The notes beneath the pieces are model-generated. The model had not been told where the DNA came from. It saw only the letters and a list, made by a program, of their open reading frames with translations, and did no database searches. DNA of 64,000 nucleotides from Dudresnaya verticillata (taxonomy: Eukaryota). The stretch spans positions 496,001-560,000 of the forward strand of contig OZ374561.1 of assembly GCA_977862235.1 (NCBI GenBank). The letters are read 5' to 3'. Positions 27,767 to 49,400 of the stretch are shown here, piece by piece (the first letter of the stretch is position 1; each line of letters begins with the position of its first letter). A program made the translations under genes and the position numbers.

Positions 27767-28215
27767 TGAAACAAACACCTTTTTTCTCAATGGATCGATG
27801 CCCTCCGTCGCCGGCGTGAAGGCCGAGCGACGACTGATAAAGTCCTCACTGTCTGAGCGACCCGAGGCAGGGTCGCTCAGAGACCCCAAACAAAGGGGTG
27901 AAGTCCGCCTTACATGGCTGACATCCTAAAATACAATTAAAACTGGACGGTGCGACCGCAACCGCAGGAGGAGCAGATCGGCGCAGCCGATCTGGAGGGA
28001 AGTCCCAAATGTAGCCAGAAATAAAAACAAAACAGATAAGCGGCAGCGCGCAGCGCCGCTCCCGGTGCGCTCGAACCCTACCCTCGAGCGCCACCGGAAG
28101 CAAATCGGTGCTGGCGACCCCGCCAGGGCCACTTACGTCAGCCCGGCCGCGCCGGCCGGAGTACGAGTACGTATGATAAAAGAAACACGTGGGCTCACGT
28201 GGCATGACCGTTTCA
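27767..28215 (-). repeat. 3' LTR of outer element (449 bp)
   Basis: Matches 45962-46410; no mismatch found by eye. Confidence 0.97.
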
Positions 28216-28234
28216 TCCTTCCCACCTTCCCCCC
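28216..28234 (-). promoter_or_regulatory. Polypurine tract of outer element
   Basis: Minus strand GGGGGGAAGGTGGGAAGGA directly before the 3' LTR. Confidence 0.9.
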
Positions 28235-28248
28235 GATTGACGTCCGCG

Positions 28249-30425
28249 TCAATGCAAGTGCGACAGAAGGCCATGCTCGACGATGTAATCCCTGAACGCG
28301 GTGGTCAAGGTGCCATCTGTATCAACGAAATCCCTTGTAGGTTGCCACTCAGCTTCATGCTGCGGTGTGCCTTTCAGCAGTGTGAGCCATTGGAAACCGC
28401 GCCCACGCTTGCGATGGGCGAGGATACGCTCGACCTCGAACAACAACGCACCGGAGTCATCAGGGACGGGTTCAGGGCGAGGTACTACCGGTTGACTGAG
28501 CTCGGGAGGCTGTGTCTTGTGCGGGAAGGTATGCGAAACGTGCACAACGGGATGTAACCTCATATTGGAAGGTAGATCCAAGCGAAGGGCGTTCTTCCCG
28601 ACTAACTCCAGAATCTTGAATGGGCCGAAGCGCCTGCTACCCAACTTCTCTGACGATTGCGTCTTAGACACCGCATCCTTAAACAGTCCCCTGCTTATCC
28701 ACACGCTGCCACCTACTTCATACGACGACGGCGAAAGCCTTTGCGCATTGTACGCTGCGTGCCGTGCCTTAGCCAATTGATGCGCAAATCGAGCATCCTC
28801 AAGCGCACTGTTCATACGAGCGTTAAATTGGGCGACGCTCTCAATTGTCGTGTTCACTGGCAACGACATGTCCAGGGGGGCGCGAGGATTCCAGCCAAGG
28901 TCCACCTCGAACGGTGTGGCTTGTAACGCTTCACTCTTTGCGGAGTTGTAGGCAAATTCCGCCGCTGGTAGAAACGCGTCGCAATCATCCTGTCGCATGG
29001 AGCAATAGCAGCGTAGGTAGTTCTCAACCATTCGGTTCATGATCTCAGATGTCCCATCTGTCTGAGGATGATGCGTCGAAGATATTTGCAACTTGATCCC
29101 ACAGCGGGACATGAGGTGCTCCCAAAACTTGGAAGTAAACTTTGAGTCTCGGTCAGAAACGATTGCGTCAGGTAGCCCATGGTGTTTGAACACGTTAGAG
29201 AAATATGCATCGGCTACGTCCACGGCCGTGTCCGTCGTCCTGCTTGGAAGGAAGTGCACCCTTCGGGATAACCTATCTACCCACGTTGCGATGCTGTCAA
29301 ACCCTTGCTTAGTGCGGGGAAGTTTGAAGATGAAGTCGGTAGCAAGTGACCCCCATCTACGAGTAGGAACATCAAGAGGGGTAGGGATACCCAGCCTTCT
29401 CATGCGGCTGTCCTTCTTTTGCTGGCATGTTTGGCAGCCATCGACGTAACGCTTTACGTCGCGGCTCTTGTGCCGCCAATGAAAGCGTTCGAAACGGCCT
29501 AAGGTCTTGGAGAAACCGAAGTGGCCGGAAGTAGAGGCGTCATGTGCGGCGTACAGCACCTCCCTGGCGTTTTTTCGAGGAACACAAATCTTGTTCTCAT
29601 ACAACAGTCTCCCATTTGCGAACGTGAAGAGCGGGAGCAGCCTTGCTACCCGATCTTCTTGGACCTTGTCCTTCGGTAATTCTCCCTTCAATCCTTGTAC
29701 GATAGGGCCAAAGACTTGGTCCGTGTCGTACTCAAGCGTCGCTGGAAGGCCATCCATACTCGACGCAACTACATTGTTGATCGTAGTGTCCTGCTTGACA
29801 TGCGGGGCGCGGGAAAGGACGTCTCCAAGCACATGCACTCGTCCAGGCTTGAGTGTGATCTTGCTAATCCCAAATTGCGAGAACAAGTCCAAACAACGCG
29901 CCTCACGTCGATTGAGAGTGGGCTTTGTCAAAAAGTGCTTTAGAACCTGATTGTCCGTGAACACTTCGAAGGTCATACCCTCCAGGTAGCAACGAAAACG
30001 CTTGAGGAAGTACACGAGTCCCAAAAGTTCGCGCTCATTTGCAGTGTACCTTTGTTCCGCATCGGACAACTTCTTGGAGAAGAACGCAACGGCTCTTTCG
30101 GCTCCATTACAATCTAATTGAGTTAGTGTCCTTCCAACCGCTCTCTGAGATGCGTCAATGTGACAACGGAACGGCTTGCCCCAGTCCGGGGATATCAGGA
30201 TCGGGGCAGAGACCAACAGAGCTTTCAGTGTTGCGAAATACTTGTCGCAATCGGTGTCCCATTTTCCGACCCCGACGCCCTTCTTAGTCAGTGTCGTAAG
30301 CGGGGCAGCAATGCCTGAAAAGTTCTTGATGAAGCGCCTGAAGAACTGTAACAACCCAATGAAACTGCGTATTTCAGTAAGGGAGGTGGGCTTCGGCCAG
30401 TCATGGATAACTTGAACCTTCTCGG
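28249..30425 (-). pseudogene. pol: Outer pol, 3' part (RT thumb, RNase H, integrase, chromodomain), separated from its 5' part by the nested insertion
   Basis: WPKPTSLTEIRSFIG, DAS, ERELL, TDNQ (RNase H); HHCC zinc finger (HDA..SGHFG...CQTC); D,D(35)E (TDF, SDRD, TSEIMNR); GPF; chromodomain FEVERILAHRKRG...EWQP. Confidence 0.93.
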
Positions 30426-31210
30426 TGTGGTGCAACGCCAAGGGGCCTCCGAAACGGGCGCAAACGACCGGGCCAAGTGGGACGGTCAGCCCAATCAGAA
30501 AGATACATTTGGCCAACCGACGACAGTGCGGCCGAGCAGACGACGGTGAACACTGCGCAAGGAGCACACGTGTCCAACAAGTGTACACGTGTGTCACACG
30601 TGGCCACCGACGACACCTAAGCGCACCACGTGGCCCGCTGTACACGTATGATCGGTGTGATCGGATCTGGAAGCAAGTGCGGAAAGGAAAATGGATTTGG
30701 CCGCAAGTGAAATCAAGCAGGAGACAGCAGAAAAATCAAGGGAAAATCTAACTCATTTGGCCAACCACTAACGAACAAGTACTTGGTTTAGACTGGTAAG
30801 GGTACAACATTGGCCCGACACCGGTACACAAGTAGATATTATGGCCGACGGGGAGTAACCTCGGCCACTAACTGTAGCATACGTAGAATAGCTCTAGATT
30901 AGCTCTAGTGGCCGATTTTTGGGCCTACTTAGACGGCCACAGACTACGGCTCGGCCAGAATAGGTACGAAGCCGTCCCGCCAGAGGTTGGGAGTAAAGTT
31001 TTGCAACCTTTCCCCAGCTCGGCCATTTTCCACTGCTCATCCAGGATTTTGGCCGCGACTTCGTCTGCGCGCTCCCGCTCTACCACGCTTGCTACCGGCG
31101 CGCAGGTCCGTTCTACGTTCGGCCAGTTTCTACGAAATCCGACCGATCTTCCTGGTCCTTTGGGGTCTCATCCCGGCGCCGCATTCGGTGGTGCCGCTCG
31201 AGATACTACA
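30426..31210 (+). repeat. 5' LTR of inner element (785 bp)
   Basis: Matches 42921-43705; one substitution seen (C30449 vs T42944). Confidence 0.97.
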
Positions 31211-31211
31211 C

Positions 31212-31222
31212 TGGTCTCCCGA
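31212..31222 (+). promoter_or_regulatory. Primer-binding site of inner element (probably tRNA-Tyr)
   Basis: TGGTCTCCCGA 1 nt after the LTR; its complement ...GGGAGA-CCA implies G72/A73, the eukaryotic tRNA-Tyr identity elements. tRNA identity is inferred. Confidence 0.7.
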
Positions 31223-31687
31223 CCTAGAAGATCAGCTGAGGTTTCGGCCGTAATTCTCCGTTAGGAGACTCGAGTAGCTGGCCGTAGTCGACGACGGCCA
31301 GTATCTTCCTCGCTACTGTGGTGGCCAAATCCCGCAAGTTGCAGATTGCGGGTTAGTAACTACCCGGTCTCGCAAATCTGATTATCCGTCTACTTCAACC
31401 CGATTCCGTGGCCGCAGTCTAGGTCACAGGCCAGACACCCGTCGCTTGGTTCGTTCCCAGGTCGGCCGCTTTGCACACTCACTGGTTCGTTCCCAGCACA
31501 GGGAGCTTTGCACACGGCAATGTCCAACCCTTGGTATAGGGACTAGAACCCGGAATCGTCCGTTCCCACCCCTGTGTTTTGCACACGACAGTGTGGTTCC
31601 CAGGTAGGCCACTTTGCACACGTCGGCCACGGGGTATCCACGAATCGCAAGAAGTACACGGCCGATTAGTCTTCGAAGCACTTCTTC

Positions 31688-34027
31688 ATGTCTTCTTCTT
31701 CCTCACCGGCAGGCGGACAACCGCAGTCCTTACAAGACTCGGCCCCGCCTCCCTCCACGTTGGGCGCTCCCATATGCCCACCACCGGCCCCTGGCCTTTA
31801 CCCACCGTTATCGGGGCCAATACCAGCCCCTCCGGTCCCGCTAACGACTGGCCGGGGTATGCCTCCAACAGTCGGCCGAGCAGGGTCAGCTTCCACGGCC
31901 GGTGCCGTCCGCGATGAGGTACCGCCAAGGACAGCTCCTCCGATGTCGCCATGGCGCACGCCACCGGCGGCATCCGCTCCGCCAATGACTCCGCTGGCCG
32001 CTCCTGCCAATCTTCGGCCGCCTCCGGTTGACGATGATTCCCAGCCGGAACATGATGTCTGGTTGGGCCGGCAAGAGTTCTGCCAGTATAAGCGCCGTAC
32101 GGCCGATTGGCAACAAGAGGTGAAGAACCAGTTTGGCGAGATGCAAGTCAAGATGTCCACCACGGCTCTGATTAGGGACCAACAGCTTCGCCAGGAGATA
32201 CACTCCGTCATTCTCGACGGTGCACTTACGGCCATAGCCGAACGTTATGATGAGCTTCTGGAAAAGGTTGAGTCGGCCGTTTTCTCTTCCGACGGGAAGG
32301 TAAAACTCCCTGCTCCTCCTGCCCAGACAAGGTCCGAGTCCGCTCGGATGACACCGGCCAATCAACCAGTCTTGGCACCACAGGTTGGTGAACCGGTAGC
32401 AGCAGTGCAGAAGCAATTGGACAAGTTGCAAGATGAGATTACGGCCTTGTCGCATCCTGACAAGGCCCGGCCGAATATTCCAGTGGAAGGGGTACCACCG
32501 CAAGAGGGCAACACTCAAAACAGTGGTGCCGCCCCACAGCCTGCGTTAGTTGGCCCTTCGGGCCCAGCTGAGGTAGGAGAATCTTTCACGGGATATGCCG
32601 GCCATTTGGATGAAACAGGTCTTCCGATCGCAGCGATGGGGCCGATTGAACAGGGTCTAGAGCCTCTCAAGACCCTCCAGGAGCCCTTTCGGAGGGTGGT
32701 GGATTACCGGACCCACCGTCTTCTGGATACCCGGCCGACGATGACGATGGAGGATGCGCGGCGCCTGTCCCGGATGACTCGCCAAATCCGGAACTTGTTC
32801 CCGCAGATGAACCCATTTGATGGCCGACGCCCGATAGAACTTCTTTCTTTCCTTAAGGAGTTCAAGGATGCCTGTGATGGGACAAACGTTCATGAAGGGG
32901 CCGCTTTGCGTCTTCTGGCCTTCTTCACGGCCGGTGATGCGAAGAGGTTCTATTCTGGCCGGATGTCCCGTGGTATACGGTCAGTATACTCCATCTTCCC
33001 GATGAGTGGATTTTCACAAATCAGCTGGCCACACTTAGTCCATGCTTTCATCAAGCGCTACTGCACCGAAGATGTTCTGGCCGCCGCGTTTGACAAAGTG
33101 GCCAGAAGCAAACAGAAAGATACCGAGACAGAAGCGGAATTTGCCGACCGGTTAGGGGACGCGGCGCTGTCGTGCGCCGATGTCTTCTCGGAGAACACCC
33201 TGATCAACCATTATGTGAGGGGTTTACCTTCAACCACTCGTTCGGCCGTAGCTGAGAAGCTTATGCAGATGCGGCCGGAAGAGAAGGACTTCTCGACGGT
33301 GCGCCGCATCGCCATCGCCGAGGGGGAGACGCACAGAGCCTACTTGGCATCTGCACGTCCCAAAACTAGGTCGGCCAGTTCCAGAAGTGCGTTGGTCATC
33401 CCTACCCTTGCGGCCGAGCCTGCTTGGCAGGCGGAGCCCGAGGATATAGCGGCCAACTATGATGATCCGTTTGACACCATACCGGTTATGGCCATTACTC
33501 CTGGCCAGAATGGTGCTCAGCAAACACCGACAATGACACCGACCACACCGTCACCGGCTGGGTCGGTGTCCGGGGGTAATACCCCGGACCCACTCCGGAA
33601 GCCGCCAACATTAACGGCCGATGAGCTGACCAAAGTCGCTATTATGCTACGCAGTGACAAGACCAGCGCCCGTTGTTGGGGTTGTCGTGAATGGGGCCAC
33701 GATTTGTACACTTGTGTGTACTTACCAACGGCCATCAGGAACTTGGTTGCCATACGGAACTTCCGCTTCAGAGATGAGTACTCTAGATGGCACCCAGAAC
33801 AGTTTGCCGGCCGAGGAGGTCGAGGTTACCGCCCCGACCAAAGGAATGTCTCCTTTGGGGATGGAAGGGGACGCCCTCCCCCTCAGGGAATACTCCGACG
33901 GCCGCAACAATCATCTTCGAACCGTGGGAATCGGCAGGCCACGCTAGTCACTACGCAAGAACATCCCATGGATGAGGTGGTGGCCGACGTGGAGTCCGAT
34001 AATTCTTCGTTAGCATCGGGAAACTAG
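31688..34027 (+). CDS. gag: Gag of inner element (779 aa)
   Basis: Pro-rich N-terminus, capsid-like region (PFDG...FLKEF...W...F...Y...Q...ET..EF..RL), CCHC knuckle CWGCREWGHDLYTC. Confidence 0.9.
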   Translation: MSSSSSPAGGQPQSLQDSAPPPSTLGAPICPPPAPGLYPPLSGPIPAPPVPLTTGRGMPPTVGRAGSASTAGAVRDEVPPRTAPPMSPWRTPPAASAPPMTPLAAPANLRPPPVDDDSQPEHDVWLGRQEFCQYKRRTADWQQEVKNQFGEMQVKMSTTALIRDQQLRQEIHSVILDGALTAIAERYDELLEKVESAVFSSDGKVKLPAPPAQTRSESARMTPANQPVLAPQVGEPVAAVQKQLDKLQDEITALSHPDKARPNIPVEGVPPQEGNTQNSGAAPQPALVGPSGPAEVGESFTGYAGHLDETGLPIAAMGPIEQGLEPLKTLQEPFRRVVDYRTHRLLDTRPTMTMEDARRLSRMTRQIRNLFPQMNPFDGRRPIELLSFLKEFKDACDGTNVHEGAALRLLAFFTAGDAKRFYSGRMSRGIRSVYSIFPMSGFSQISWPHLVHAFIKRYCTEDVLAAAFDKVARSKQKDTETEAEFADRLGDAALSCADVFSENTLINHYVRGLPSTTRSAVAEKLMQMRPEEKDFSTVRRIAIAEGETHRAYLASARPKTRSASSRSALVIPTLAAEPAWQAEPEDIAANYDDPFDTIPVMAITPGQNGAQQTPTMTPTTPSPAGSVSGGNTPDPLRKPPTLTADELTKVAIMLRSDKTSARCWGCREWGHDLYTCVYLPTAIRNLVAIRNFRFRDEYSRWHPEQFAGRGGRGYRPDQRNVSFGDGRGRPPPQGILRRPQQSSSNRGNRQATLVTTQEHPMDEVVADVESDNSSLASGN

Positions 34028-37000
34028 CCGGGCCGAGATCTTCGGTCGTGATCCCGTTGCCCGTACACGTCCCAAAACCGGCTAGTCTCGTTTCCATTAA
34101 GTTCTTTCCTTTTAGCCACATCCGTTTTTCTTCCTTGTTAGCCATTGCATGGCGTTTGGCAACGCCAATCCAGGTTTGGTCAACCCATGATTTGACCTAT
34201 CACTGCCCATTTTCATCTAACGGTCTGGTGTGGTCACCGCCTTGGCGCGTCGGCCATACTACATCATCATCATGCACCCCCATACCAAAAGATGAGGGTT
34301 CCTTGCCAAAGAGCGGCCGCAAACTATTGACTGAAGAAAAGACAGAAGAATCCAAGTCGGCCGATGTTTCATCACAAGGTATGGTCTGCATCCTGGGTGG
34401 GGCCAACTATACCCTTTCGGGTTCTTTCGGTCTCACCATCTGTGCCTTGATACCCGGGCCCGTTGTCTTAGACACCTGCTCGGGATGGAACATCATCCGG
34501 CTGGATGCGTTGCCTCCGAATTGGAAGGACAACGCACTTGAGTTGACGTCCCCACCTCTCCTAGGGGACGCCAACCAACGGCCGATTCACTTTCGAGGGG
34601 CCGTTTCCTTGGTCGTGCGCTTAGGCCGTCATTCCTACCGAGTGCCGTTCCTCATCGCCGACCTTCGATTCGCTGTACCTATCCTACTAGGTACAGCCTT
34701 TTTGAACACGCACGTGGATAGCATACAGTGCCGTGGTCAAACCGTGCACTTAGTGCGCGGAGATATCCTTCCGCTTCTCCCTGACAGCACTTCAGTGGCT
34801 CTGGGGGCAGAGCCAACCGCTGCGAAGGGGGCCCCGCCTCCGGGTGGTAGTGGTAATTCCAATTCGGCCAAGCCTCCACGACACTACGCGGCCACTGTAC
34901 GCTTGACAAAAGGTCTGACCATACGGGCAGGTCAACAGGCTACCGTGTCTGTTCGCAGTGACGGCCGAGGATTGTGCGTGCTGGAGCCCAAACATTCTTT
35001 GAGCTTCCGGCACCATACGCGAATGGCCAATGGAGTTGCAGAAGTTCGGCCGCAGAAACCGTTCCAGGTAATGCTGGCCAACTGGGGACGCAAGGATGTA
35101 TTATTACCAAAGGGTACGGTAGTCGGCTACGCCGTCCGTCACCCTATGGCAATCCTGACGCCACACCGACAGAGCGTGGAAAATATGGCCAATGTACTTG
35201 GTCTCACCCCTCTGGTGGAGCAGGATATTAGTCAAGTAGAAGTAGAAGAGGTCGGCCAAGAAAAGGATAAGTCTTCGGAACCAGATCCACCCAGAAACGA
35301 CGCAGAAGAATGGCGGGACAAGATCAAGCTTGATCACATCCCGGACAAGAAGCAACGCAAGAAGATAATGGCCATTCTGGAGAAACACAGTGCGATGTGG
35401 GACGGTTCCTTAGGACAGATCATGGCCACCGAACACCGAATAGACTTGGAAGATGGGGCACGGCCAATAAGAGCCATGCCCTACCGACAGGGACCAGCGT
35501 TACGTGCAATCGCTGAGGCCGACATTAAGAAGCAGTTGGAGGCCGGAGTGATAGAACCATCGCACGGGGAATGGGCATCACCAATTGTCATGGTGCCCAA
35601 AAAGGATGGCACTCTTCGCTTTTGTGTTGACTACCGTCGACTCAATGCGAAGACAGTTGGCGACGCATATCCGCTCCCGCGTATGGATGACTGCATAGAT
35701 TCCCTTGGAGATGCGGCCGTGTTTTCTACCTTGGACTGTAACTCCGGTTATTGGCAGATACCAGTGGCCGAAGAAGACAAGGATAAGACGGCCTTCACTT
35801 CCCACTTGGGAACATTCCGTTATAATCGAATGCCGTTTGGATTGAAGAACGCACCGGCCACATTCCAGCGCGCACTTGATATCGTTTTGTCCGGGGTCCG
35901 ATGGCAAATATGTCTCATCTACTTGGACGATGTCATCGTCTTCTCTAAGAATGTGGAGGATCACCTCGGCCACCTGGACGAGGTACTTACCTTGTTGAAG
36001 GCGGCCGGTATTACGTTGAAGCTGAAGAAGTGTTCGTTCTTCCAGACCAAAGTAGATTACCTGGGTCACGTGGTGACTCCCGGGAAGTTGCGTATGGCCA
36101 TGCAAGGGACGAAGGCAATTCAAGAGGCCGAATTTCCAGGTACCCTTACGGAACTTCGGCCCTTCTTGGGAGCTTGCAATGTCTACCGGAGGTTTGTGGC
36201 CAAATACTCTATGATCGCCCGGCCGCTCACACGTATGCTATGCAAGGACGCAGAGCCAGACTTCGAACAGCCGACAGAGGAACAACGCCATAGTTTCGAG
36301 AAACTGAAGGCAGCCCTAGTCTCACCACCGATCTTAGCCTTACCGCGCTATGGACGGCCGTATGTCATTGAAACGGATGCCAGTGCTTATCAAATCGGGT
36401 GTGTCCTACTCCAAGAACAAGAGGACGAGACATACCACCCAGTAGGATACTGGTCTCGCTCCCTGACCTCGGCCGAGAAGAACTATTCAGCCACGGAGCG
36501 CGAGTGTTTGTCTGTGGTGTGGGCCATTACATCGTTACGGCCATATGTTGAAGGGACGAAGTTCACAGTCCGCACGGACCATGATGCACTTCGGTGGTTG
36601 ATGTCGCTCACAGATTCGTCAGGCCGCCTCACGAGATGGAGATTACGCTTGGCCGAGTTTGACTTTGTGATTGAGTATAAGCCGGGACGCAAGAATCAAG
36701 TCCCCGACGCCCTGTCCCGACTGGTAGCCCCGCTGGAGAGCGGAGACATACGGCCAATAGATGACACTGTACCTGTACTAGACGGTACCCCCTCTATTCT
36801 CACGACCACACGGGACAGGAGAAATCGAGAAGTAGCCAACGCGGCCGATAGGAGGGAACGAGAAAACGAAGACGATGTTGATGCGTGGGAAGAAGAGCAT
36901 CTGATGGCCGATTATACTGACTACGGTCGAGCAGAGGCCTTCAGTCGTGCAGAAGCAGAAGGGAAGGCATCGGAGACACTACCCGCACCATTGACACAGG

Positions 37001-38457
37001 CCGAAATTATAGAAGGGCAGAAAACCGACGACTTCTGCCAGACTATCGTAGCCACGCGTGCCGGTTTGGGGAAGTCCAAGAAACCTCTTTTCTTCGAGAG
37101 TGCCCAGGGAGTCCTCTCCCGGCGGTGCCCTACGGACGGCCGACATCAAATAGTGCTACCCGCTTCGTTACACGGCCGTATTCTTCGGTTGTGTCATCAC
37201 GCAGTTCTTGCAGGTCATCCCGGCCAGAACCGTATGTATCAGACGCTCCGTCGGACGTATTACTGGCCACACATGGCCGCTGATTGCCTTGCCACTATTC
37301 GGAACTGTGGCCAGTGCGCCAAGAATCGGATCCGCAGACTACGCCATACGTCAAGGTTGAAGCTGTTTCCGGCCAATCAACCCTTGGAGAGCGTGGCTAT
37401 GGATCTGCTTGGGCCGTTACCTCGGACGAAGAAAGGCCATGAGCATATATTAGTCATCACATGTCGTTTCTCTAAGCTGACACAGGTAGTACCACTGGCC
37501 AAAATCACTGCATACAATGTGGCCATAGCCTTTTGTACTCACTGGGTTTTCAAATATGGAGCGCCGAAAACAGTACTGACCGACAACGGGGGATAGTTTG
37601 CGGCCAAGTTCTTCCAAGCGGTTTGCCGCCAGTTACAAGTGGCCAATATATTCACGACGACATACCATCCACAGACCAATGGTCAAGTGGAGAGGTATAA
37701 TCGAACGCTGTCGGCCATGCTGCGAAGTTATGTGAACGAACACCAAACCGATTGGGACCAATATGCGGCCGCACTGACGTACGCGTACAACTGTCACGTA
37801 CATCGTTCTACGGGAACTACACCGTTTGACTTGGTGCTGAGTCGACCGCCGGGACCGTTTTCGTTAGAAGCCACGCTAAACCGGCCAAAGCCAACGGGAG
37901 CCGTCAAGGAAGCTTTCCTCCGAAGATTATCGGAAGCTGTGGACCGGGCGTCGGCCAGTCTAACTCGCACGCAGACGCGCTACAAGAAGGACTTTGACCG
38001 TTCAGTGCGAACGGGAAACAAGTCATTGGCCGCAGGGGAGTTCGTCTACTTGGACAACCCAGAAAAACAGCCGAAGAAACTGGAGCACCACGCACAAGGG
38101 CCGTATAAGATTATAAGTAACGATGGCCGAACATTCATGATAGACCGAGGTGGCCAGTTGGAACGCGTGAGCTCTGATCGAGTTGTCGCCGCTCCAAGGC
38201 CACAAGGGCAACCACTGGCTCCAGAAACTATGACCAGTGCTGCCCTTGGCAACCTCCCAGAGGGCGTAGCAGCGACGGCCGAAGAGTATGTCATCGACAA
38301 ACTCATGGACATGCGCCAAGATTCTACCGGCCATCGTTGGTTCCAAGTCAAGTGGTATGGCTATCACGGCCGAACCTGGGAGCCAGAAACTCTCCTACCG
38401 GCCACGTTAGTCTCCCGTTTCTTTGCGCGCATGGCGCGGCGAGCCACACCAACCTAG
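34018..38457 (+). pseudogene. pol: Pol of inner element (PR, dUTPase-like insert, RT, RNase H, IN, chromodomain) with one in-frame stop
   Basis: -1 frame to gag; VLDTCSG and ILLG (PR); RFCVDYRRLN, MPFGLKNAPATFQ, YLDD (RT); TDAS, ERECL, TDH (RNase H); HHCC; MDL, TDNG, VER (DDE); GPY; chromodomain EYVIDKL...VKWYGY..TWEP. TAG at 37594-37596; the frame resumes to 38457. Confidence 0.93.
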
Positions 38458-39285
38458 AGCGACGAAGGTCCGGTGTGAGGTCGGCCATCATAAGTCCAAG
38501 CAAGCGAAGTCAGGAGTTCGGCCGGGAATCGGTAAGCCAGTGTGTGTGTGAAGGAGTAGTGCGTCGGCCAGGTGGGACAGTGCTGGGTGGTAATAACATT
38601 TTGGTGAACACAGCGCGCACCAAAATACGACGGCGGTCATTTAGGGCTGGACTGACCAGGTGCATCTCGGCCAGATCGCGAATGAATGGGCCGAAATCAC
38701 TGAGGAGCACGAGCTGGGGTAAGATGAGTAATAATGATTGGATGGTAAAAACTCACCATCCGGCCCTGGAACGAGTAACGTTAATTGCAGCCAAAAACGT
38801 GCGAACACCCGACAAGACATGGCGGCGGTTCCGACCTTCACGACTTGGCCACTCGCACGGATGCTCCCTCGGAGAAAGACGGCCGAACCATTGCATCGTG
38901 AAGGAGGAACATCGGCCGAAAACGAAGACGAAGCAAATTGGCCGACCTACTGTAGTGCAACCAGAGTGCGGACGCAACCTTGAAATCGGCCAAAGGATGA
39001 AGCTGACGGCCATAAAGCAAGGAGGGGTTTTCGAGAAACCCCTAAGAAGAAGACGACCATTAACATTTAACTCAAGAATGGCCGAACATTAAGTGGAAGA
39101 GCTGTTCCGAAAACAGGGAACCTCTCACCCGATGTCGGCCGAGTACTTACTATTAATGGCCATCAACTTTTCAACATAACAACAACTATACGAGGACGGC
39201 CATGAACACACTAACTTAACATTGGCCGAAGAGGAAAGGACGCCAAGTCTCCACAAGAACTTGGCCATCCACTTGAAGCTGGCAG

Positions 39286-42200
39286 CTAACGCCGGACGTA
39301 GGGGTCAGCGTACTCGTTTGGCCGAGAAGGGTAGGGCATCGGGGACCTTGGTCCCGCTGCCCCACCAGCATCTGAAGAAGGATCGGCCGCACGTGGTAGG
39401 AAGGGACTGGCCGCAGGAAGTGACATAGAAGGAGTGCCGGCCATGCTAGAACGCGGAGCCGCCACTGGTGTGCCAGGTGCCGAAGGCCCAGCGCGAGGAG
39501 GCTCAGGTTGGTAGTCAGACGGCCGAGGAGCAACGCGACTTTGGCCAGAAGGGACATCGAAGACTTGAGCCGGAGTCGTAGGAACCGGCGTCGGTGTGGC
39601 CGCACCCGGCGTCCCAGCGAAGTTGGGCATCATCGGAACATTGGCCGACAATTGCTGGTAAGGGTGATGGTGAGACGGGAATTGGCCGAACGATGGAGCA
39701 GCCAGTGCCCTCATAGAAGCCATCTGGTGGAAGCTACGGTTGCGTTCCAAGTCCAGCAGCGTCTGCTGTTGATGGGCCGAATCGCACCAACGGTCGCGCT
39801 GACGCTTCCACTCCTCACCCTGTTCCTTCTGCATGGCCAATTTCTCTTGAACATCTTGGTTGATACCACTAAGGCGGTTGAGCTCCCGCTTGAGACCGGC
39901 CAACTCTTCTTCACGCTGCTCAATAACGGCCTTATCCGCATCAAGGCAACGTCGGTAGCGCGCGATATCGGCCAAGTCCTTCTCCCGCATCTCCCCGAAT
40001 CGGCCGATGCATTGGTCCAGCTGACGTAGGACAGTAACCAAGGGTGCTTGATTCAGATGGCCCCTCACGCTAAGCTCGGCCACAAGTCGAGGATGCGGCT
40101 GGAGAGTTTGCGGCCGAATTATCGAAGCTTCGTTGGCCACCTCCACGCCGAAGCTGCTACCATGGCGAAAGGTAATCTGCTTACCCCAGTCGAAACCGCA
40201 GTACTGCTCCTCTTTAGATCCACGACGAGAGAATAAGTGGGGACGGTGACGAACAGCATCGGCCAACTTATCGTAGAGGTCAACCACATCTGGCCAATAC
40301 ACGTCGTTGTACAAGTGCTGGTGTGCGGGGTTCACCGGCAACGAAGGAAGATCCTTGATGGCCGAAACTCTCTTCTCGATGTTCGGAAGAGGCATCCACC
40401 ACATCCGCTTGGAAGCTTGAGCTTCGTAGCGGAAGAACATAGCGGCCATAACGTGGATCTCCTTGGTCGTGATCTGCCGGAAGTACCCGCACCAATCCAC
40501 TTCTGTCGGCCGTGTGTTGTACTGATGAACGAAGTAATAGGCCGTCGGACTCAACAAGGGACACTCTCCAGCAGTCGGCCATTCAGACCAAAGGAAGGCC
40601 GGGATTGATGGGAAGGTAGTCACGGGCGGCCAGAAGCACTGTTGCCCACGACCACCGGCCAAGTAGATGTAGCAACCGGTCGTCTGATGAGCAACCCAGT
40701 CGGCCGGCGCAATCACGCGACGCAAGTCCGTGCTGGCCCACTTCGCGCTACGTACCACGGCCTGATCTGCGCGGTCCAACATCCAAGACTGCGGGAAGGC
40801 ATGCCACCAAGTCAACATGTAGGGCATTACGGAGGAACGGCCGGTAAGCGTAAGCCAAGCTTGGTGGACCAGCAGAACGTCGCCCATGTTGAGCAAGAAG
40901 GCGCGGTCGCATCCAATCTCCCATGGCACCCAATACAAGTGGCCGCCAGCGCGTGAGGAACGGAACTGGCGCCAATTATCGGCCAGGTTATCGGGACTCT
41001 CCCGAAGACGGACCATATCCAACTTCGGCGAAGTAGCCACCAACTCCGTGTAGTTGATATCAACTCTCGGAAATTTCGGCCATATGGACATGTCGGGCAA
41101 GCTCGCGTCAAGCAGCAACTCTGGGCCGTCGTGATCTTCGGTCCCCGGTGGGATATGAGACGGCCGATGAGATGCCGTCTGGTTGTGCCTGGCAGGGGCG
41201 GAGTCTTGCGGCAGAGGAGAAGAGACGGCCGGTGTAGAAATCGGCACAGAAGGGCCAAGAGTTGGACGGGCGGCTGATGAGGTCGGCCGATGAACTTCTT
41301 GACTAACGGCCGTGGCATCCACTACATCTTCACGCGGAATAAGTGCAGACTCCCTGGGGTCCGGCGTTGGAGCTGAAACGGCCGGTGAATATGTCTGAGG
41401 AGCCGGAGTGGGAGCCGCTGGGGCAACTTCCCCCTTTTGGTTCGGCCGAGATAAGTCTTCTAACTCGGGCAACTGACTGGCGAAGCGCCGCTGGTCGCCA
41501 TCACTCATCAACATGGCCGGTGGCACAGGGGTATCCGCATCGACGTCGATCACCTCGCTCCTCGAAGGAGGGGGTACCTTCTTTACGGCCGCTGTTTTCT
41601 CTTCTTCGGCCGTTCGTAACTTCTTCGATGGTGGACTGCGTGACGAGGAGGGTTTTAAGCCTGGGCCGGACCAACGAGTAGGCATGAAGGGCGAAGGAGA
41701 TGACCGCAAGCGAGGAGCTAAGCGGTGCACCGTCGGATTATCAGTGGCCTTCTCAGCTGTCGGCCGACGTGGGACAGCGATACCTGCTAAAGCACGCGCC
41801 TTCTCTCGCTCGGCCGCTGCTTCCATAGCTATACGCAAGATGGCCAAGTCCTTTGGGTTGGCCGTCTCAGCACGATCCACCTTCTTCTCATCGGCCGACT
41901 TCTCAGTGGCCGCTTCTGCCGCTTTAGCGTTGCCATCGGGTCCAACGCTGGCAGACGGGGTAGACTGTTTGGCCGAAGTTGGGAGTGGAGCCGGCGGCGC
42001 AATAGCGGTAACGGCCGAAGAAGAGCGTGTCGCCTTCTTGCTGGCCTGCTTGAGAACGGCCGCGTCAACAGGGGCAGACGATGCCCCCGCTACCACTACA
42101 GCGTCGGCCGGAGTTGCGCGCATCACCGGCAAGGGAAGAGCCGAAACCGACGGAATGTTCTTGCGGGAAGCCATATCAGAAGCTGCAGCCACCTTCGGCG

Positions 42201-42708
42201 ACGGTGGAAGAGCAGATATGGCCAACTTCATCGGCTTCGACTTGGTAACGGGAGGGAGCGACGGAGACGATGACGAAAGCAACACCGCATCGGCCGACGT
42301 CTTCTTAGTGGTCTTCTTCGCTTCTTCCAACGCGGCCAAACGACTCTGCAACTCCAAGATTTCCTTATCTTCGGCCGCACGACGTTCGCGGTAGTTGGCC
42401 AGAACCTTCTGCAGTTCTTCTGTATTGGCCAACTTCCTAGCTTCCTTGTCGGCCGTTTTCTTCTCTTGGGGCGCGGCCGTATGTTTCGATGATGAGGGCC
42501 CTGTGACTTTGGCAGGCGCACTCTTGGATGACGACGCCACCGCTTTCCGTAAGTCGGCCATTGTCGGCGGCGCCTTATTCTGCGCTGAGTCGGCCACGTT
42601 GTCGTCACTCGAAGAGTCTGATGAGATGATGCGCGGGGGCGGGGTCTTCTTCGCGCGACGGGAAGAGGGAGCGCGACGCGCGCGCTGCTTGGCCGGGCCG
42701 GTAGTCAT
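39286..42708 (-). CDS. Antisense accessory ORF of inner retrotransposon, 1140 aa, unknown function
   Basis: Uninterrupted 3.4-kb ORF from ATG 42708, between pol and the 3' LTR; protein-like architecture (basic N-terminus, coiled coil, low-complexity linker, Trp/Tyr-rich core, second coiled coil, Pro-rich tail). Confidence 0.8.
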   Translation of the reverse strand: MTTGPAKQRARRAPSSRRAKKTPPPRIISSDSSSDDNVADSAQNKAPPTMADLRKAVASSSKSAPAKVTGPSSSKHTAAPQEKKTADKEARKLANTEELQKVLANYRERRAAEDKEILELQSRLAALEEAKKTTKKTSADAVLLSSSSPSLPPVTKSKPMKLAISALPPSPKVAAASDMASRKNIPSVSALPLPVMRATPADAVVVAGASSAPVDAAVLKQASKKATRSSSAVTAIAPPAPLPTSAKQSTPSASVGPDGNAKAAEAATEKSADEKKVDRAETANPKDLAILRIAMEAAAEREKARALAGIAVPRRPTAEKATDNPTVHRLAPRLRSSPSPFMPTRWSGPGLKPSSSRSPPSKKLRTAEEEKTAAVKKVPPPSRSEVIDVDADTPVPPAMLMSDGDQRRFASQLPELEDLSRPNQKGEVAPAAPTPAPQTYSPAVSAPTPDPRESALIPREDVVDATAVSQEVHRPTSSAARPTLGPSVPISTPAVSSPLPQDSAPARHNQTASHRPSHIPPGTEDHDGPELLLDASLPDMSIWPKFPRVDINYTELVATSPKLDMVRLRESPDNLADNWRQFRSSRAGGHLYWVPWEIGCDRAFLLNMGDVLLVHQAWLTLTGRSSVMPYMLTWWHAFPQSWMLDRADQAVVRSAKWASTDLRRVIAPADWVAHQTTGCYIYLAGGRGQQCFWPPVTTFPSIPAFLWSEWPTAGECPLLSPTAYYFVHQYNTRPTEVDWCGYFRQITTKEIHVMAAMFFRYEAQASKRMWWMPLPNIEKRVSAIKDLPSLPVNPAHQHLYNDVYWPDVVDLYDKLADAVRHRPHLFSRRGSKEEQYCGFDWGKQITFRHGSSFGVEVANEASIIRPQTLQPHPRLVAELSVRGHLNQAPLVTVLRQLDQCIGRFGEMREKDLADIARYRRCLDADKAVIEQREEELAGLKRELNRLSGINQDVQEKLAMQKEQGEEWKRQRDRWCDSAHQQQTLLDLERNRSFHQMASMRALAAPSFGQFPSHHHPYQQLSANVPMMPNFAGTPGAATPTPVPTTPAQVFDVPSGQSRVAPRPSDYQPEPPRAGPSAPGTPVAAPRSSMAGTPSMSLPAASPFLPRAADPSSDAGGAAGPRSPMPYPSRPNEYADPYVRR

Positions 42709-42909
42709 CGCTACGCGACGGCCGAGAAGTAGCGTAGAAGAAGGTGGAAGGAGGTGAAGAGTAAGGAGCGCAGTCGGCCGTAGGGAGCGGGTGTGCACAG
42801 TGAAGGTGCGCGTGCTGAGGATGATGGCCGGGGGTGAGGGTGCCAGACGACGCGGCGCCCGTCTTGATATAACCGTGATCCGAGCTCGCGGCCGGGGGTC
42901 CGCGCTTGC

Positions 42910-42917
42910 GAAGGGGG
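42910..42917 (+). promoter_or_regulatory. Short polypurine tract of inner element
   Basis: GAAGGGGG ending 3 nt before the 3' LTR. Confidence 0.6.
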
Positions 42918-42920
42918 CTC

Positions 42921-43705
42921 TGTGGTGCAACGCCAAGGGGCCTTCGAAACGGGCGCAAACGACCGGGCCAAGTGGGACGGTCAGCCCAATCAGAAAGATA
43001 CATTTGGCCAACCGACGACAGTGCGGCCGAGCAGACGACGGTGAACACTGCGCAAGGAGCACACGTGTCCAACAAGTGTACACGTGTGTCACACGTGGCC
43101 ACCGACGACACCTAAGCGCACCACGTGGCCCGCTGTACACGTATGATCGGTGTGATCGGATCTGGAAGCAAGTGCGGAAAGGAAAATGGATTTGGCCGCA
43201 AGTGAAATCAAGCAGGAGACAGCAGAAAAATCAAGGGAAAATCTAACTCATTTGGCCAACCACTAACGAACAAGTACTTGGTTTAGACTGGTAAGGGTAC
43301 AACATTGGCCCGACACCGGTACACAAGTAGATATTATGGCCGACGGGGAGTAACCTCGGCCACTAACTGTAGCATACGTAGAATAGCTCTAGATTAGCTC
43401 TAGTGGCCGATTTTTGGGCCTACTTAGACGGCCACAGACTACGGCTCGGCCAGAATAGGTACGAAGCCGTCCCGCCAGAGGTTGGGAGTAAAGTTTTGCA
43501 ACCTTTCCCCAGCTCGGCCATTTTCCACTGCTCATCCAGGATTTTGGCCGCGACTTCGTCTGCGCGCTCCCGCTCTACCACGCTTGCTACCGGCGCGCAG
43601 GTCCGTTCTACGTTCGGCCAGTTTCTACGAAATCCGACCGATCTTCCTGGTCCTTTGGGGTCTCATCCCGGCGCCGCATTCGGTGGTGCCGCTCGAGATA
43701 CTACA
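42921..43705 (+). repeat. 3' LTR of inner element (785 bp)
   Basis: Direct repeat of 30426-31210, followed by TSD CTCGG. Confidence 0.97.
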
Positions 43706-45094
43706 CTCGGGATTGACCCTGATTCCATCCTTGCTAACCAACATCCCCAGGAACTCTGTCTCAGGTTGGAAGAAAGAGCACTTCTTCGGGGAGACGTAAA
43801 GTTCTTCAGACTGCAAGCGAGACAGCACTGTTTCAAGGTGCTTCAATTGTTCCTCCTTCGTGCGACTGTAGATCAACAAATCATCCATATAGACCACCAT
43901 AAAAACGTCAATACAGTCGTGGAACACCTGGTTCATAAGCGTTTGGAATGTAGCCGGAGCGTTGCACAGACCCATAGGCATGACGAGATATTCAAACTGT
44001 CCGTACTTAGTGTTGAAGGCGGTTTTCTCAACATCCTCCGGACGGACCCGTATCTGATGGAATCCCGTCTTGAGATCCAGCTTCGAGAAGTACTGTGCCC
44101 CTGCCAAACGGTCGAACATTTCATCCGGGCGTGGCAAGGGGGCGTTGTTTCGTTTTGTAAGGCGATTGAGAGCCCTGTAATCGACAACGGCCCTCAGTTT
44201 GTCCTTGTCCTTCACGAGAAATAAGGAAGCGCCGAAGGGAGATTTGCTTCTCCTGATTTTCCCTTTACGAAGTAGATCCACAACGTACTCCTTCACGGCG
44301 AGCAACTCGGCCGGAGATAGTTGGTACAACGGCCGCAAAGGCGGTTTTTCCCCCTCTTCTATCTCTATTGAGTGGTCGACGGTCCGCTTTGGGGGAAGTC
44401 CCGACGGAAGAGACTCTTGGAAAACGTCCTCAAAGCGTGACAAAAGATTCTCTAGCTGGGGGTCGTGGGACGGCTTGCGTTCTTGCTTGGATGGTGTCTT
44501 CTGAGTCACCTGGAAAACCTGGAAGTCTTGCCGGTTCCCTTTCTTCCGTAACATGGACCGAAACTTCTTTACCCCAAGCGAAGTGATAACTGGACCCTCT
44601 TCGCTGTCTTTCTCAATGGGTAAGTTGTCCTCATTAACGAAAACCGAATGCTTGGTGTAGTGAATACGGGGTGCAGTTCGCTTATGCCACGGCATACCAA
44701 GTAGAACATCATACCGACAATCTGCCACAACGAAGTTGGAACGATACTTGTGGTTCCCTAACCTCAACTCTGCATCTGTCACGAGCTGTGTGGCCTTTTC
44801 TACAGTACCTTTCTTAGAATGTGACATGACGGTGGATGTCGCTTTCACCACAAACAAGTTTGGGTTGCGAGACAGAAAGGACTTCGATACAACATTGGTG
44901 TTGCAGCCATCATCCTTCAATATGCGGACGGGAATAGAGTTTAGGAGCCCCTGAAATACGAGAAGCTCCGTAATCGGCACAGCCGATATTTCTGTAGACT
45001 TCCTTTGCCTGCGTTCCGTTCGCAGAGAGTGCACTCTTTTCTCAAGTCCTTCAGGAGTGTCTTTACTGTTCTGTGAAGGACTGACTAGTTTTCC
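43706..45094 (-). pseudogene. pol: Outer pol, 5' part (protease and most of RT), interrupted at ...GIRVNPE
   Basis: ILKDDGC and DVLLG (PR); VVDYRALN, MPMGLCNAPATFQ, YMDD (RT). Removing the insert and one TSD copy restores GIRVNPE-KVQVIHDWP in frame. Confidence 0.93.
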
Positions 45095-45915
45095 GAGTCA
45101 CCACTGTGCTCCTCGGTATCTTCGAAACCTTCCTCTTCATCGGCCTGGAAGTTATTGGCGGCAACCCCGTCGCCTTGGTGCTTCCACGGGCGGCAACCGA
45201 CTTTATGGCAAGTGAAGCACGCTTTGTTGCGATAATCTTTGAGTCGCTGACCCTCCAAGGCGCCACGTCCACGCCCACGTCCACGAACTCTGCCGCGTCC
45301 ACGTGATTCCATGTTCCCAATCTCCATGGGCGTGGGGCCTTGCGAGCTCGAACCGTCGCCTGAAGGCTGCATCTGAACGCCCCAGATTGCACTATCCACG
45401 CGCAGTGCAATCTTTGCCGCATCCTCGAATGTGGTCACGCTTGACTTCATCACTTCCAGCCTAACATCATATTTCAGACCGGCACTGAACTTATCCCACA
45501 TTTCCCCATCAGTCATACCCGGGACAGTGAGACAGACATTACGAAAGTCTGAGAGGTAGTTGGAGACTGAAGTTGTCTGCTTTAGCTTCCTAAGCTTGCC
45601 CCTGGCGCGACGGACGTGATCATCAGGCACGAACTCCGCAATTACCTTCGCCTTGAACTCGGCCCATGTAGCTGGGACGGTGTTTGCCTGAACGAGAGTG
45701 TACCACCAAACAGCAGCGGTACCAGTGAGGAAGGTAGAAGCGTAGAGAATCCTATTCCCGTCGCCAAGCTGTACTGCTGGGTTACTCAGCTGCACAAGAG
45801 CAAGATACTGCTCGACCTTGTAGATCCAGGTATTGACCACGAGATAATCCCGACGGCCATCGTAGGGTTCGGGCTTGTTGGGCTTCAGATTGATCGGACC
45901 TTGAGCTGCAGCCAT
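45085..45915 (-). CDS. gag: Gag of outer element
   Basis: KPEPYDG, LTGTAAVWW, TWAEFK, LKQTTSVSNYLSDF, PMEIG motifs typical of chromovirus-like Gag; RG repeat; knuckle-like C-terminus. First ATG 45915. Confidence 0.9.
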   Translation of the reverse strand: MAAAQGPINLKPNKPEPYDGRRDYLVVNTWIYKVEQYLALVQLSNPAVQLGDGNRILYASTFLTGTAAVWWYTLVQANTVPATWAEFKAKVIAEFVPDDHVRRARGKLRKLKQTTSVSNYLSDFRNVCLTVPGMTDGEMWDKFSAGLKYDVRLEVMKSSVTTFEDAAKIALRVDSAIWGVQMQPSGDGSSSQGPTPMEIGNMESRGRGRVRGRGRGRGALEGQRLKDYRNKACFTCHKVGCRPWKHQGDGVAANNFQADEEEGFEDTEEHSGDSEN

Positions 45916-45950
45916 TGCGGGGGCGTTATCAGTGAGATCGGTCACTGTGC

Positions 45951-45960
45951 GATGCTACCA
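45951..45960 (-). promoter_or_regulatory. Primer-binding site of outer element (initiator tRNA-Met-like)
   Basis: TGGTAGCATC 1 nt after the 5' LTR on the minus strand; TGGTAGC matches the 3' end of many eukaryotic tRNA-iMet (inferred). Confidence 0.65.
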
Positions 45961-45961
45961 C

Positions 45962-46410
45962 TGAAACAAACACCTTTTTTCTCAATGGATCGATGCCCTC
46001 CGTCGCCGGCGTGAAGGCCGAGCGACGACTGATAAAGTCCTCACTGTCTGAGCGACCCGAGGCAGGGTCGCTCAGAGACCCCAAACAAAGGGGTGAAGTC
46101 CGCCTTACATGGCTGACATCCTAAAATACAATTAAAACTGGACGGTGCGACCGCAACCGCAGGAGGAGCAGATCGGCGCAGCCGATCTGGAGGGAAGTCC
46201 CAAATGTAGCCAGAAATAAAAACAAAACAGATAAGCGGCAGCGCGCAGCGCCGCTCCCGGTGCGCTCGAACCCTACCCTCGAGCGCCACCGGAAGCAAAT
46301 CGGTGCTGGCGACCCCGCCAGGGCCACTTACGTCAGCCCGGCCGCGCCGGCCGGAGTACGAGTACGTATGATAAAAGAAACACGTGGGCTCACGTGGCAT
46401 GACCGTTTCA
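45962..46410 (-). repeat. 5' LTR of outer element (449 bp)
   Basis: Direct repeat of 27767-28215, flanked by TSD CTTCT. Confidence 0.97.
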
Positions 46411-49400
46411 CTTCTTAGCCGTGACCTACCGTTAAATTTGTGAAGATTATTTGAACCAAGAGCACTGCACAATAAAAAAAAAGAAGTGCAGTAGTGATAT
46501 CGCAGTGCCTCCAAGATTATAGGAATCCTCAGTGAATTTCAGCTTGATATACGATTTGTGTCTGGACAAAAGCAATTGTTGTATTGTCATGCTATTTTAT
46601 TTATTTTTGCTTAAGGCCTGAACGTTAGAAGTTCGGAGCTCTTTTAGAAAGAGAGCGCGACTAATGAACTACACGCCATGACATTAATGTTCATGTCGTG
46701 CACGTTGTGTAAGATTGATATTTTGAAGGAAGATGTGAATTGCATTAATGGTGACAGGAGTGCTATTATTGTTGATGACCCTGATTTGCGTGTCTCGCAT
46801 CTCGCAGTCGGCCCTTATTCCATAATATAGTACCACAAGCTCAGTAGTACAGTAGTACTGTAGTAGTAGTATGTAGGAAGTTATAATCGCAGAATGGCCA
46901 GCTGCTGACGACCTCTCGTGGGAGTGTCGTACAAAACCGATACAAACACATATCGAGAAGTTGGTTAAGAATTCGCTTTTTTTGTTATTCTATTGTTGTT
47001 ACAGTATCTATTAGTGCAGTTGTGTAGTACATGTACGTGCTACCAATTCAAATGTGGAAGCGTCAAATAGAACCCAGAAAGTTGACAAGAGCGGAGCTCT
47101 GACTGGTCATGCATTGTCAGCATTCTGCGTTGCTGGCGCTTGCCAAGGGTACAGTGGAACGGAAATGAAATTAGGCCGTATTGTTTTAACCTCAAGGCTC
47201 TCTAATTGCTGGTGTGTTTGATCCGGAACCCGTTGATGGCAATCAGGTACGCCACACATCAAACACTCGCCGCTCGTTGACAAAGTTTGCGAGCACATAT
47301 CCAAGTGTGATAATAAAAAAGAACAACGGGCCTCCTCCCGGCAGAAGGCCCCGTAAGATAAGGGTACCAGATGACACACCACAAGTTTTTTTTGGGCCAT
47401 TTATTTGAGAACGTGTACATCAGAGTGTGCGGATTGTTCATACAGTGGCAGCTAAGACGTTGTTTCGAGAATGAATGCTTTAAAAAAACAGGTTTAGGCT
47501 GGTGAAGAAAGAATATTAACTGGTACTGTCGCGACGCTAGTAACGCTGGACAACTACGAAGAAAAAGTACAGTATTGGAAGGATGGTGAGGTGAAGATGC
47601 ATTGTGCAGCGATGCTGTACTCGACCCATATCAAGATAATCTACAGACTCCATTAACGAGGATTATTACAACAGGATGTAAAACAGTAACTCCCAAGGAC
47701 GAGACGAAGCAGCGAGGAAAAATGTCTTGGGCAGGAGCAGGCTTAGGTCGGTTTGTGGATGGAGCAACTGACTCAATGAGTAAGTTATTTCTACAGTACT
47801 GTCTCTTTCTGAAGCACAGTATTTAAGCTCCGCCTTTCTTGAAGTATATCGCTCAGCAACAAATATACAGTACAGTAGTGAGAACAATACGTATAACTTT
47901 TGAAACTGGTGAGGAGCACAGACAAAGATCCACACAGGTGTTTAATTTTGGCCATACAATCAGACGTGTCTGCGGTTCTTTTGAGATAATCATAGCGAAG
48001 AGGAGACGATTCCGTGGTGTGGTACGGTAGCATGAAGGCGGAACGAGAATTAATAGGAAGGGGGTGGGGTGGATGCGAATGCGGGAAAAAGCGCAGAGGA
48101 GTGTTCTTGTCGCTCAAAGTAAGGTGAAGATGTGAACAGGGCGGGGGCAAAGGTTTGACAGGGATGCGGCATGTACATGTATGTGCACTGCGCTCGATTG
48201 CTCGATTGGAAGAAGGGGGGCTACTCGGCCGGCCAGGATACCGAAGCGGTGTCTCAAATTGTACGGCGCCAGCTAGTGCTTCGTTGTCAAAGACTGGAGC
48301 AATAGCTTTCAAGAAAGAATGGCTCCGCTCACTGGATGGACAGTGAGTTTTGAGGTGCAGCAAGTTGTATGCAGTCCATGCTGTTTTGTTTTTGTTATTT
48401 TGTTTTGTTCTGTCCATTTGTACAGTATCCCAATCTCAGGACTTGGGTAGGATGGTGAGAAAGTATTGGATGGAACTTGAGGGTTTGGGGGTCTTGCAGG
48501 ACAAAGAGTGGGGGTGAGGGCACGAGGCGTATCTTACCAGGAGGGTTTTGCTGGTAGTGTGGTGGGTATGGTTGGCTCACTGATACCTCTGGAGGTGAGC
48601 AGGCTCCGGGGTGCGTTGTCGAGAAGGTTGTGATTCGCCGTCAACAAGTCTAAAGACATTGGAAGCTGGATGATTCGTCATAATGCAGATAGTGCAGAAA
48701 AGAACGGACATTGACGAGCGGACTGCTGCTCAAAGTTGGGTAATAAGTTGAAGGTCGGAAAGGATTATATTGGGCTAGTGTCTTTCCAGGCGGTGACAAC
48801 AATGCTCTATTGTGTTAACAGGAAGCGCTCCTCTGGAAACCATGGGGCAGAAAAAATGCGTGGTACTGTGGCAAGGCGACTTTGGCGACGACGGGAAAGT
48901 GTTCGGGGCGTGGGCTTTGCGAAGTTTTGAGACGCGCGGTGCGGTCGCTGATCCGATGACAAATGGGGCTTGAGCGTAATGAAGTTCATGCAACTTTTTG
49001 CATCAAAGTGCGAAAGTGTTGAGTCGAAGAACGTGGGGGAGACAGCCCTACGAGGGCCCCGGGCGCGCACTTGTGATTGTCCACGTGCCGAAGATCGGAC
49101 CCGGTGGGGGTCAGCACGCGGCGGGGGCGCTAAAACGGCCGGCGGCAGCATCACGGTCAGCACACGCGGCAATAAAATGGGCTCGCGCTGGCCAATGCGG
49201 GCGCGCTGCCCGCCCGGGCATTACAGCGCGTGGGCGCCCCGCAAAGGGGAGCTATCCGCGCACATGCACTGCGGCGGCGCAATCGGGCGACGGGTGGACG
49301 CCCTTCGGGGCGCGACGAGCTCGCAACGGCGGCGTAGCCGTCTGCGGGCGGCGTAACGACCGACGGTGCGCGGCATCGGATGGCCAAGAAGCGCCGGTCG

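Follow-up and report, generated by a model that had tools for sequence, protein, structure and literature searches.

Does a protein encoded antisense within a retrotransposon read a DNA tag that the same element carries? The question arises in a 64,000-nucleotide stretch of Dudresnaya verticillata DNA (GenBank assembly GCA_977862235.1, contig OZ374561.1, positions 496,001 to 560,000 of the forward strand; the whole stretch is referred to below as the window, and coordinates are window positions), which contains a young Ty3/Gypsy long terminal repeat (LTR) retrotransposon with a long antisense open reading frame (ORF) and a dense, element-wide scatter of the palindrome YGGCCR. The original prediction, made from the sequence alone, held that the ORF encodes a reader or anti-silencing factor paired with this GGCC tag. 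Here, we describe a new, so far unnamed family of accessory proteins that falls into a known positional class, along with an unusual tag that spans the whole element; a link between the two is possible. The accessory ORF and its parts are as follows.

39286..42708, minus strand: antisense accessory ORF, 1140 amino acids (aa), a stop-free frame with its first ATG at 42708
42646..42690, minus strand: basic N-terminal patch resembling a nuclear localization signal (NLS) in sequence, with a presumed function
40039..41121, minus strand: conserved W/Y-rich core, aa 530-890, with 5% W, 3.9% Y, 1.7% C and a net charge of +1
39739..39981, minus strand: predicted coiled coil, aa ~910-990, with an AlphaFold predicted local distance difference test (pLDDT) score of 82-92

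The minus-strand frame lacks stops from 43230 to 39289, the remaining five frames carry 26-40 stops, and the chance probability of 1140 open codons is ~1e-19; the ORF is convergent with pol, the end of which lies at 38457. The frame stays open for a further 174 codons before the first ATG (42709-43230, minus strand), reaching the 3' LTR. A non-AUG or spliced N-terminal extension is possible, and an antisense promoter would sit in the 3' LTR, given that the accessory frame remains open into it, up to 43230. Much of the anatomy originally described was confirmed, namely, the stop-free convergent frame, the basic start, the S/P/A/K-rich linker (aa 1-529, within a disordered, basic N-terminal half), the Pro-rich tail, the second coiled coil and the absence of a transmembrane helix (19-residue hydropathy maximum of 1.41). 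The core, said to be rich in Trp, Tyr and Cys, is so for the first two residues, with Cys only mildly high. Being antisense and without a transmembrane helix, the ORF does not resemble env; its length, its antisense placement in the interval from pol to the 3' LTR and its conservation among family members are those of the positional class aORF-3R. The contrast drawn between an intact ORF and a pol with a nonsense codon is real, a TAG being present at 37594-37596, but carries little weight: with a single mismatch over the 785 bases of its LTRs, the copy is too young for decay to tell much.

The accessory protein is conserved beyond this locus. A HMMER scan of 1.84 billion representatives yielded two homologs, P0001 (E 5.8e-11) and P0002 (E 1.2e-7), and a profile built from these identified three more in assembly G001 (E 1e-18, 1e-14 and 2e-6), all three organized in the same way, with a disordered arm, the core and a coiled coil, on contigs without pol. 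Basic patches and the coiled coil recur among the homologs. Between two G001 homologs, the ratio of nonsynonymous to synonymous substitution rates (dN/dS) is 0.066 and 0.035 in the core and 0.2-0.28 in the arms. The core is under purifying selection in the homologs, in agreement with the earlier view of a functional, conserved ORF unlike env. Assembly G001 (loci L082-L084, L086, L088, L089, L120-L164 and L168-L173) is a bacterial metagenome-assembled genome with many eukaryotic LTR-retrotransposon contigs (25 pol matches), probably mis-binned host DNA; G002 and G003 contain a few such contigs as well.

An integrase profile collected at least 80 metagenome loci and 38 loci from a genome collection, which form a clade with the window element. 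Among the matches listed, 32 related loci extend 2.5 kb or more beyond pol, and 27 of these carry an antisense ORF of one superfamily; this set contains some near-duplicates, and many of its antisense ORFs are broken. In pairs of wider-family ORFs, dN/dS was 0.26-0.33 in seven, with one at 0.65, and the eighth pair was saturated. The window subfamily likely belongs to this wider family, to judge from a shared ~90-aa block that maps to ~40345-40617, within the core: HHalign gave E 6e-5 and 2e-4 (probability 65% and 46%) against E 0.11 for a reversed control, and a profile of 51 sequences from outside the subfamily matched P0001 (E 2e-5 among 812 targets), with the window protein not matched directly. 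Core identity between subfamilies is 12-25%, compared with ~45-70% for pol; on these alignments, the accessory protein diverges fast between families and is constrained within them.

Comparison with known folds and domains gave no clear counterpart. The accessory ORF has no match in Pfam and none in a PDB sequence search; top scores in Atlas (0.84 and 0.76) fell under the lead level, a word-indexed search with the full ORF as the query returned nothing, a profile search with it returned P0001 as the sole match, and scans of viral contigs for the protein produced one spurious match or none. The structural check proposed for the core succeeded for the coiled coil, which was modeled confidently; the AlphaFold core stayed at pLDDT ~30, and Foldseek found no PDB match at E<=0.001. 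In the model of a relative (L023, 56 alignment rows), the ~90-aa block is resolved (pLDDT 70-90) as a small bundle of helices arranged about a single long one, the model being confident over ~110 residues only. It had no match in BFVD and no clear structural counterpart in VIA wide (best Z 4.0, root-mean-square deviation (rmsd) 3.1, 68 residues aligned).

YGGCCR occurs 195 times in the 13,280-bp element (14.7/kb) versus 54 times in the other 50,720 bp of the window (1.1/kb), which substantiates the tag originally noted. The compartments in which it was counted include the following.

30426..43705, plus strand: inner Ty3/Gypsy LTR retrotransposon, chromodomain-bearing and young, with target-site duplication (TSD) CTCGG and the 195 YGGCCR sites spread end to end
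30426..31210, plus strand: 5' LTR, 785 bp, TG..CA, with 13 YGGCCR against 1.2 expected
31688..34027, plus strand: gag (Retrotrans_gag, E 3e-5), the 3' end of which holds GGGAAAC at 34018-34024
34003..38457, plus strand: pol, encoding reverse transcriptase (RT), RNase H (RH), integrase (IN) and chromodomain, in the -1 frame relative to gag, with one in-frame TAG (37594-37596) in the integrase core
38458..39285, no strand assigned: non-coding spacer separating the convergent pol and accessory ORF, with 16 YGGCCR against 1.0 expected
42921..43705, plus strand: 3' LTR, candidate site of the antisense promoter

Enrichment extends over the LTR, leader, gag, pol, spacer and accessory ORF (z 4.6-15.5), and in coding sequence it is built by synonymous codon choice: 50-72% of the synonymous opportunities for YGGCCR are filled in the element versus 0-20% in five host genes and an outer LTR element into which this one is inserted, and under a null that preserves codon junctions, z remains at 6.2 for gag, 7.9 for pol and 10.8 for the accessory ORF. 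No tandem repeat is present within the inner element, and the sites are dispersed, mostly in coding sequence. Neighboring sites are never within 9 bp of each other, are rare up to 19 bp, peak at 20-24 bp (21/kb) and then level off at ~14/kb. Spacing is even, with a coefficient of variation (CV) of 0.65 versus 0.92 and 9 gaps of <15 bp versus 47 expected; against an opportunity-aware null, the CV is 0.42-0.69 versus 0.85-0.98 (p<=0.003). Helical periodicity is weak (best 22 bp, power 5.4). The Y and R positions are mutually independent (Fisher p 0.54), flank preference is symmetric and without covariation, and the sites show no hairpin context, GGCC not being found in hairpin loops. Because the halves are independent, a ~20-bp exclusion zone and even spacing are present and a hairpin context is absent, the reading that fits best is that YGGCCR sites behave like selected binding sites for a protein on double-stranded DNA (dsDNA), with a ~20-bp footprint and no gain from overlap.

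An element-encoded reader is favored because the outer element in the same host is untagged and elements within assembly G001 carry motifs that differ from one another. We tentatively take the accessory protein to be the reader of a family-specific palindrome, at somewhat less than even chances, because tags are element-specific in one host, the protein is fast-diverging yet constrained within families, and it combines a basic patch with a coiled coil in the manner of VANC and TnpA. The protein would dimerize through its coiled coil, enter the nucleus by means of the NLS-like N-terminal patch and bind the evenly spaced YGGCCR palindromes of its own element on dsDNA; the bound tag would mark cognate copies for activation or for protection from silencing. 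Since protein and tag would change together in each family, relatives need not share GGCC. Expression, nuclear import, dimerization, DNA binding, the identity of the reader and the anti-silencing outcome are all predicted here. Trimethylated lysine 27 of histone H3 (H3K27me3) is reported to mark transposons in distantly related eukaryotes; a role for it at the tagged element is speculation. Slightly less probable than the reader assignment itself is the wider proposal of an algal chromodomain Ty3 clade with a self-recognition code, in which a per-family palindrome, placed in silent positions and LTRs, would be read by an antisense protein that diverges fast and belongs to a new fold family.

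Several observations weigh against assigning the tag to the accessory protein. Among the matches listed, none of 77 other loci has YGGCCR at z>3 in pol, leaving the window as 1 of 78, and the contigs with the closest ORF homologs (L123, L121, L173 and L124, just 1-3.7 kb long) show neither a YGGCCR excess (observed/expected 5/7.2, 4/4.5, 1/2.4 and 7/5.2) nor a strong motif of their own. ORF-bearing relatives without GGCC, the outcome named beforehand as counting against the pairing, therefore exist, the accessory-ORF family is independent of GGCC, and the pairing of ORF and GGCC tag fails in its strict form. The core is not basic (net charge +1), and the connection of the subfamily to the wider family, reached through P0001, is modest at the HHalign values given above.

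A looser form of the pairing, in which relatives carry different element-wide palindromes, fares better. Degenerate palindromes were scanned against synonymous shuffles and scored as -log10 p; null maxima were ~4-6.6, and eight controls reached at most 7.1. The window scored 31.9, and four of 19 related sets (L086, L089, L155 and L083) exceeded 7.1. CTS-N6-SAG recurs in gag, pol and the accessory ORF of L086, L089 and L155, with site turnover such that L089 and L155 share 0 of 22 pol sites; L002 repeats GGC-N5-GCC in each of its three genes, and L083 repeats CANC-N9-GNTG in both genes considered there. Each motif, chosen from the same data, is enriched in the family that carries it but shows no excess in the window, and within G001 the motif of L086, L089 and L155 differs from that of L083. 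These patterns suggest that, in a minority of relatives, element-wide palindromes serve as family-specific self-tags. Other candidates were dropped or weakened. A GCCAA half-site, in 2.2-2.8x excess in three of the four contigs with the closest homologs, was dropped because unrelated subfamilies show an excess too; CCNCGNGG and GSC-N4-GSC in metagenome relatives weakened under a stricter null, to z 3-4 and, in L023, to 0.1. Two results count against even the looser pairing. Motif and ORF do not visibly co-occur, as the control ceiling was exceeded, among the matches listed, by 6 of 38 metagenome loci flagged for the ORF and by 2 of 19 without the flag, and some of the patterns carried little information; and the motif of L086, L089 and L155 is enriched only when the inner bases pair (29/4.8, 38/5.5 and 18/4.1), unpaired instances being at expectation. 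In these loci (G001:C60, C90 and C50), the signal, CT-nn-N4-nn-AG, looks like dispersed mini-hairpins and not a dsDNA site.

The rival that survives best, although we consider it unlikely, is that another element protein, Gag/nucleocapsid or integrase, reads the tag on RNA or cDNA, where it would be a dispersed signal for packaging or assembly, and that the antisense protein does something else, for instance in nuclear transport or transcription. Gag is likewise element-encoded and variable, and structure does figure among the relatives. Perfect Watson-Crick short inverted repeats are in 2-4.5x excess in coding sequence in particular subclades (L002, L124, L157, L159, L050, L065, L077, L031 and others), with little G-U tolerance, while other subclades are at 0.5-1x and the window has no excess; one subclade has a signal with a 4-bp stem, a 4-nt loop and paired inner bases. 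As the L086 group needs pairing and these subclades show an inverted-repeat excess, element signatures are of more than one kind, and structure in RNA or single-stranded DNA is a rival to be taken seriously. In the window, the gag-pol sense strand folds 22% more stably than synonymous shuffles, and about half of the GGCC pair with a neighbor in local folds. However, the window tag has the symmetric flanks described above, without covariation or hairpin context, the accessory ORF, the most densely tagged part, has a fold excess of just ~2-4%, and the relatives' stems do not clearly favor G-U over A-C.

Less probable again is a host DNA-binding protein or modifying enzyme that recognizes YGGCCR and is recruited by this one family, the accessory ORF being unrelated. 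Such a reader accounts for the dsDNA-like footprint and for untagged ORF-bearing relatives in other hosts, but there is no excess in the outer element of the same genome or in the host genes of the window, and the differing motifs in one assembly would demand several host readers. We give still less credence to a tag produced by biased mutation or repair, for instance by the element's reverse transcriptase, with no reader at all. Some one-mismatch neighbors are depleted in a strand-asymmetric manner (GGCT observed/expected 0.2-0.3 on the plus strand), and the relatives' perfect inverted repeats resemble the outcome of template-switch correction; yet such a process should place sites at random, whereas the observed spacing is strongly under-dispersed and breaks off abruptly near 20 bp, and transitions and transversions are both depleted in non-coding parts. 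An accessory ORF devoid of function, captured or open by chance, would agree with the lack of Pfam, PDB or Atlas matches. This reading is effectively refuted by the core dN/dS (0.035-0.07); the homologs (E 6e-11 to 1e-18) and the position shared, among the matches listed, by 27 of 32 relatives speak against it too.

The remaining features describe the genomic setting of the tagged element.

31212..31224, plus strand: putative primer-binding site starting with TGG, called by sequence
42910..42917, plus strand: putative polypurine tract, called likewise
27767..46410, minus strand: outer LTR element with identical 449-bp LTRs and TSD CTTCT, the pol of which is the insertion site of the inner element

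The inner element has everything expected of a Ty3/Gypsy element with a chromodomain, that is, LTRs, a TSD, gag, the domain order RT-RH-IN and a C-terminal chromodomain (Chromo E 2.4e-5, slightly below the curated threshold); GGGAAAC (34018-34024) is likely a -1 frameshift site from gag into pol. The outer element, which lacks the tag and has no space for an accessory ORF, is chromodomain-bearing as well (Chromo E 0.005), and since its LTRs are identical, the pair represents two very recent nested insertions. The host genes of the window are eukaryotic and intron-poor, and their content suggests a red alga. One (49357-51687, plus strand) joins a bHLH-like region (E 0.14) to a C-terminal GAF/NLP-like domain and contains a perfect ~34-bp palindrome (50245-50280) inside its Ala-repeat region, and two intronless ORFs, 15452-16990 (minus strand) and 21991-23730 (plus strand), are similar to each other and may represent wax ester synthase/DGAT.

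Among known systems, the closest in position are the aORF-3R of plant Ty3 elements (Retand/TRP28, Grande gene23 and RIRE2) and of the fungal Boty, where an antisense ORF lies between pol and the 3' LTR in most members; in PMC7264820 and PMC11963269, its function is given as unknown, with a nuclear role proposed, and the role of antisense accessory ORFs in LTR retrotransposons as still an open question, in line with the original statement that such ORFs mostly lack known function. The window ORF is alike in placement. Retand, however, is a non-chromovirus with tandem arrays in the pol-LTR interval, whereas the window clade bears a chromodomain and the window motif is dispersed through coding sequence. 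A suspected TRP28-like resemblance found no Pfam support: neither PF04195 nor PF10536 matched the window protein or 18 relatives, and no TRP28 (PF04195), DUF1985 or Plant Mobile Domain (PMD) was detected by Pfam (E<=1 to 10) in the window protein or relatives. The PMD (MAIN/MAIL1; PMD-A in retrotransposons) is transposon-derived, tied to DNA motifs and, according to 10.1101/2024.09.27.615353, linked to opposing Polycomb silencing; as to a DUF1985/PMD-like fold, the structural comparison gave a best Z of 4.0 (rmsd 3.1, 68 aligned), with the window-core model at pLDDT ~30 and the relative confident over ~110 residues only. Chromodomain LTR elements are also described, in 10.64898/2026.05.21.726589, as carrying DNA methyltransferases (DAM and DNMT) as epigenetic cargo; the window ORF and its relatives have no methyltransferase Pfam match.

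The closest likeness in mechanism is to VANC of VANDAL and TnpA of Spm in Arabidopsis, which, according to PMC5735166, 10.64898/2026.08.24.746577 and 10.1101/2024.04.02.587720, bind family-specific motifs as predicted coiled-coil dimers. Common to these and the window element are an element-encoded accessory protein, a dense family-specific short motif (present in only a minority of the window's relatives), fast divergence between families and a predicted coiled coil. Nonetheless, VANDAL and Spm are DNA transposons, and their 8-10-bp motifs gather in regions that are non-coding or terminal, as tandem repeats in VANDAL, whereas the window has a 6-bp palindrome within the codons of a retrotransposon and no motifs in non-coding tandem repeats; the window protein showed no sequence similarity to VANC or TnpA, and its binding is a prediction. 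A two-part system of cis tag and trans factor, which had seemed unfamiliar, is thus known from plant DNA transposons; for LTR elements, the literature searched (most subscription journals and bioRxiv supplements being outside its reach) held no description of this accessory family or of an element-wide tag. An evenly spaced, element-wide palindrome built by synonymous codon choice is unusual whatever reads it. The window element supplies a predicted target, YGGCCR with a ~20-bp footprint, and relatives supply other predicted targets; if true, the self-recognition code would stand as the counterpart of VANC among retrotransposons, and the long-unexplained antisense accessory ORFs would gain a function open to direct testing.

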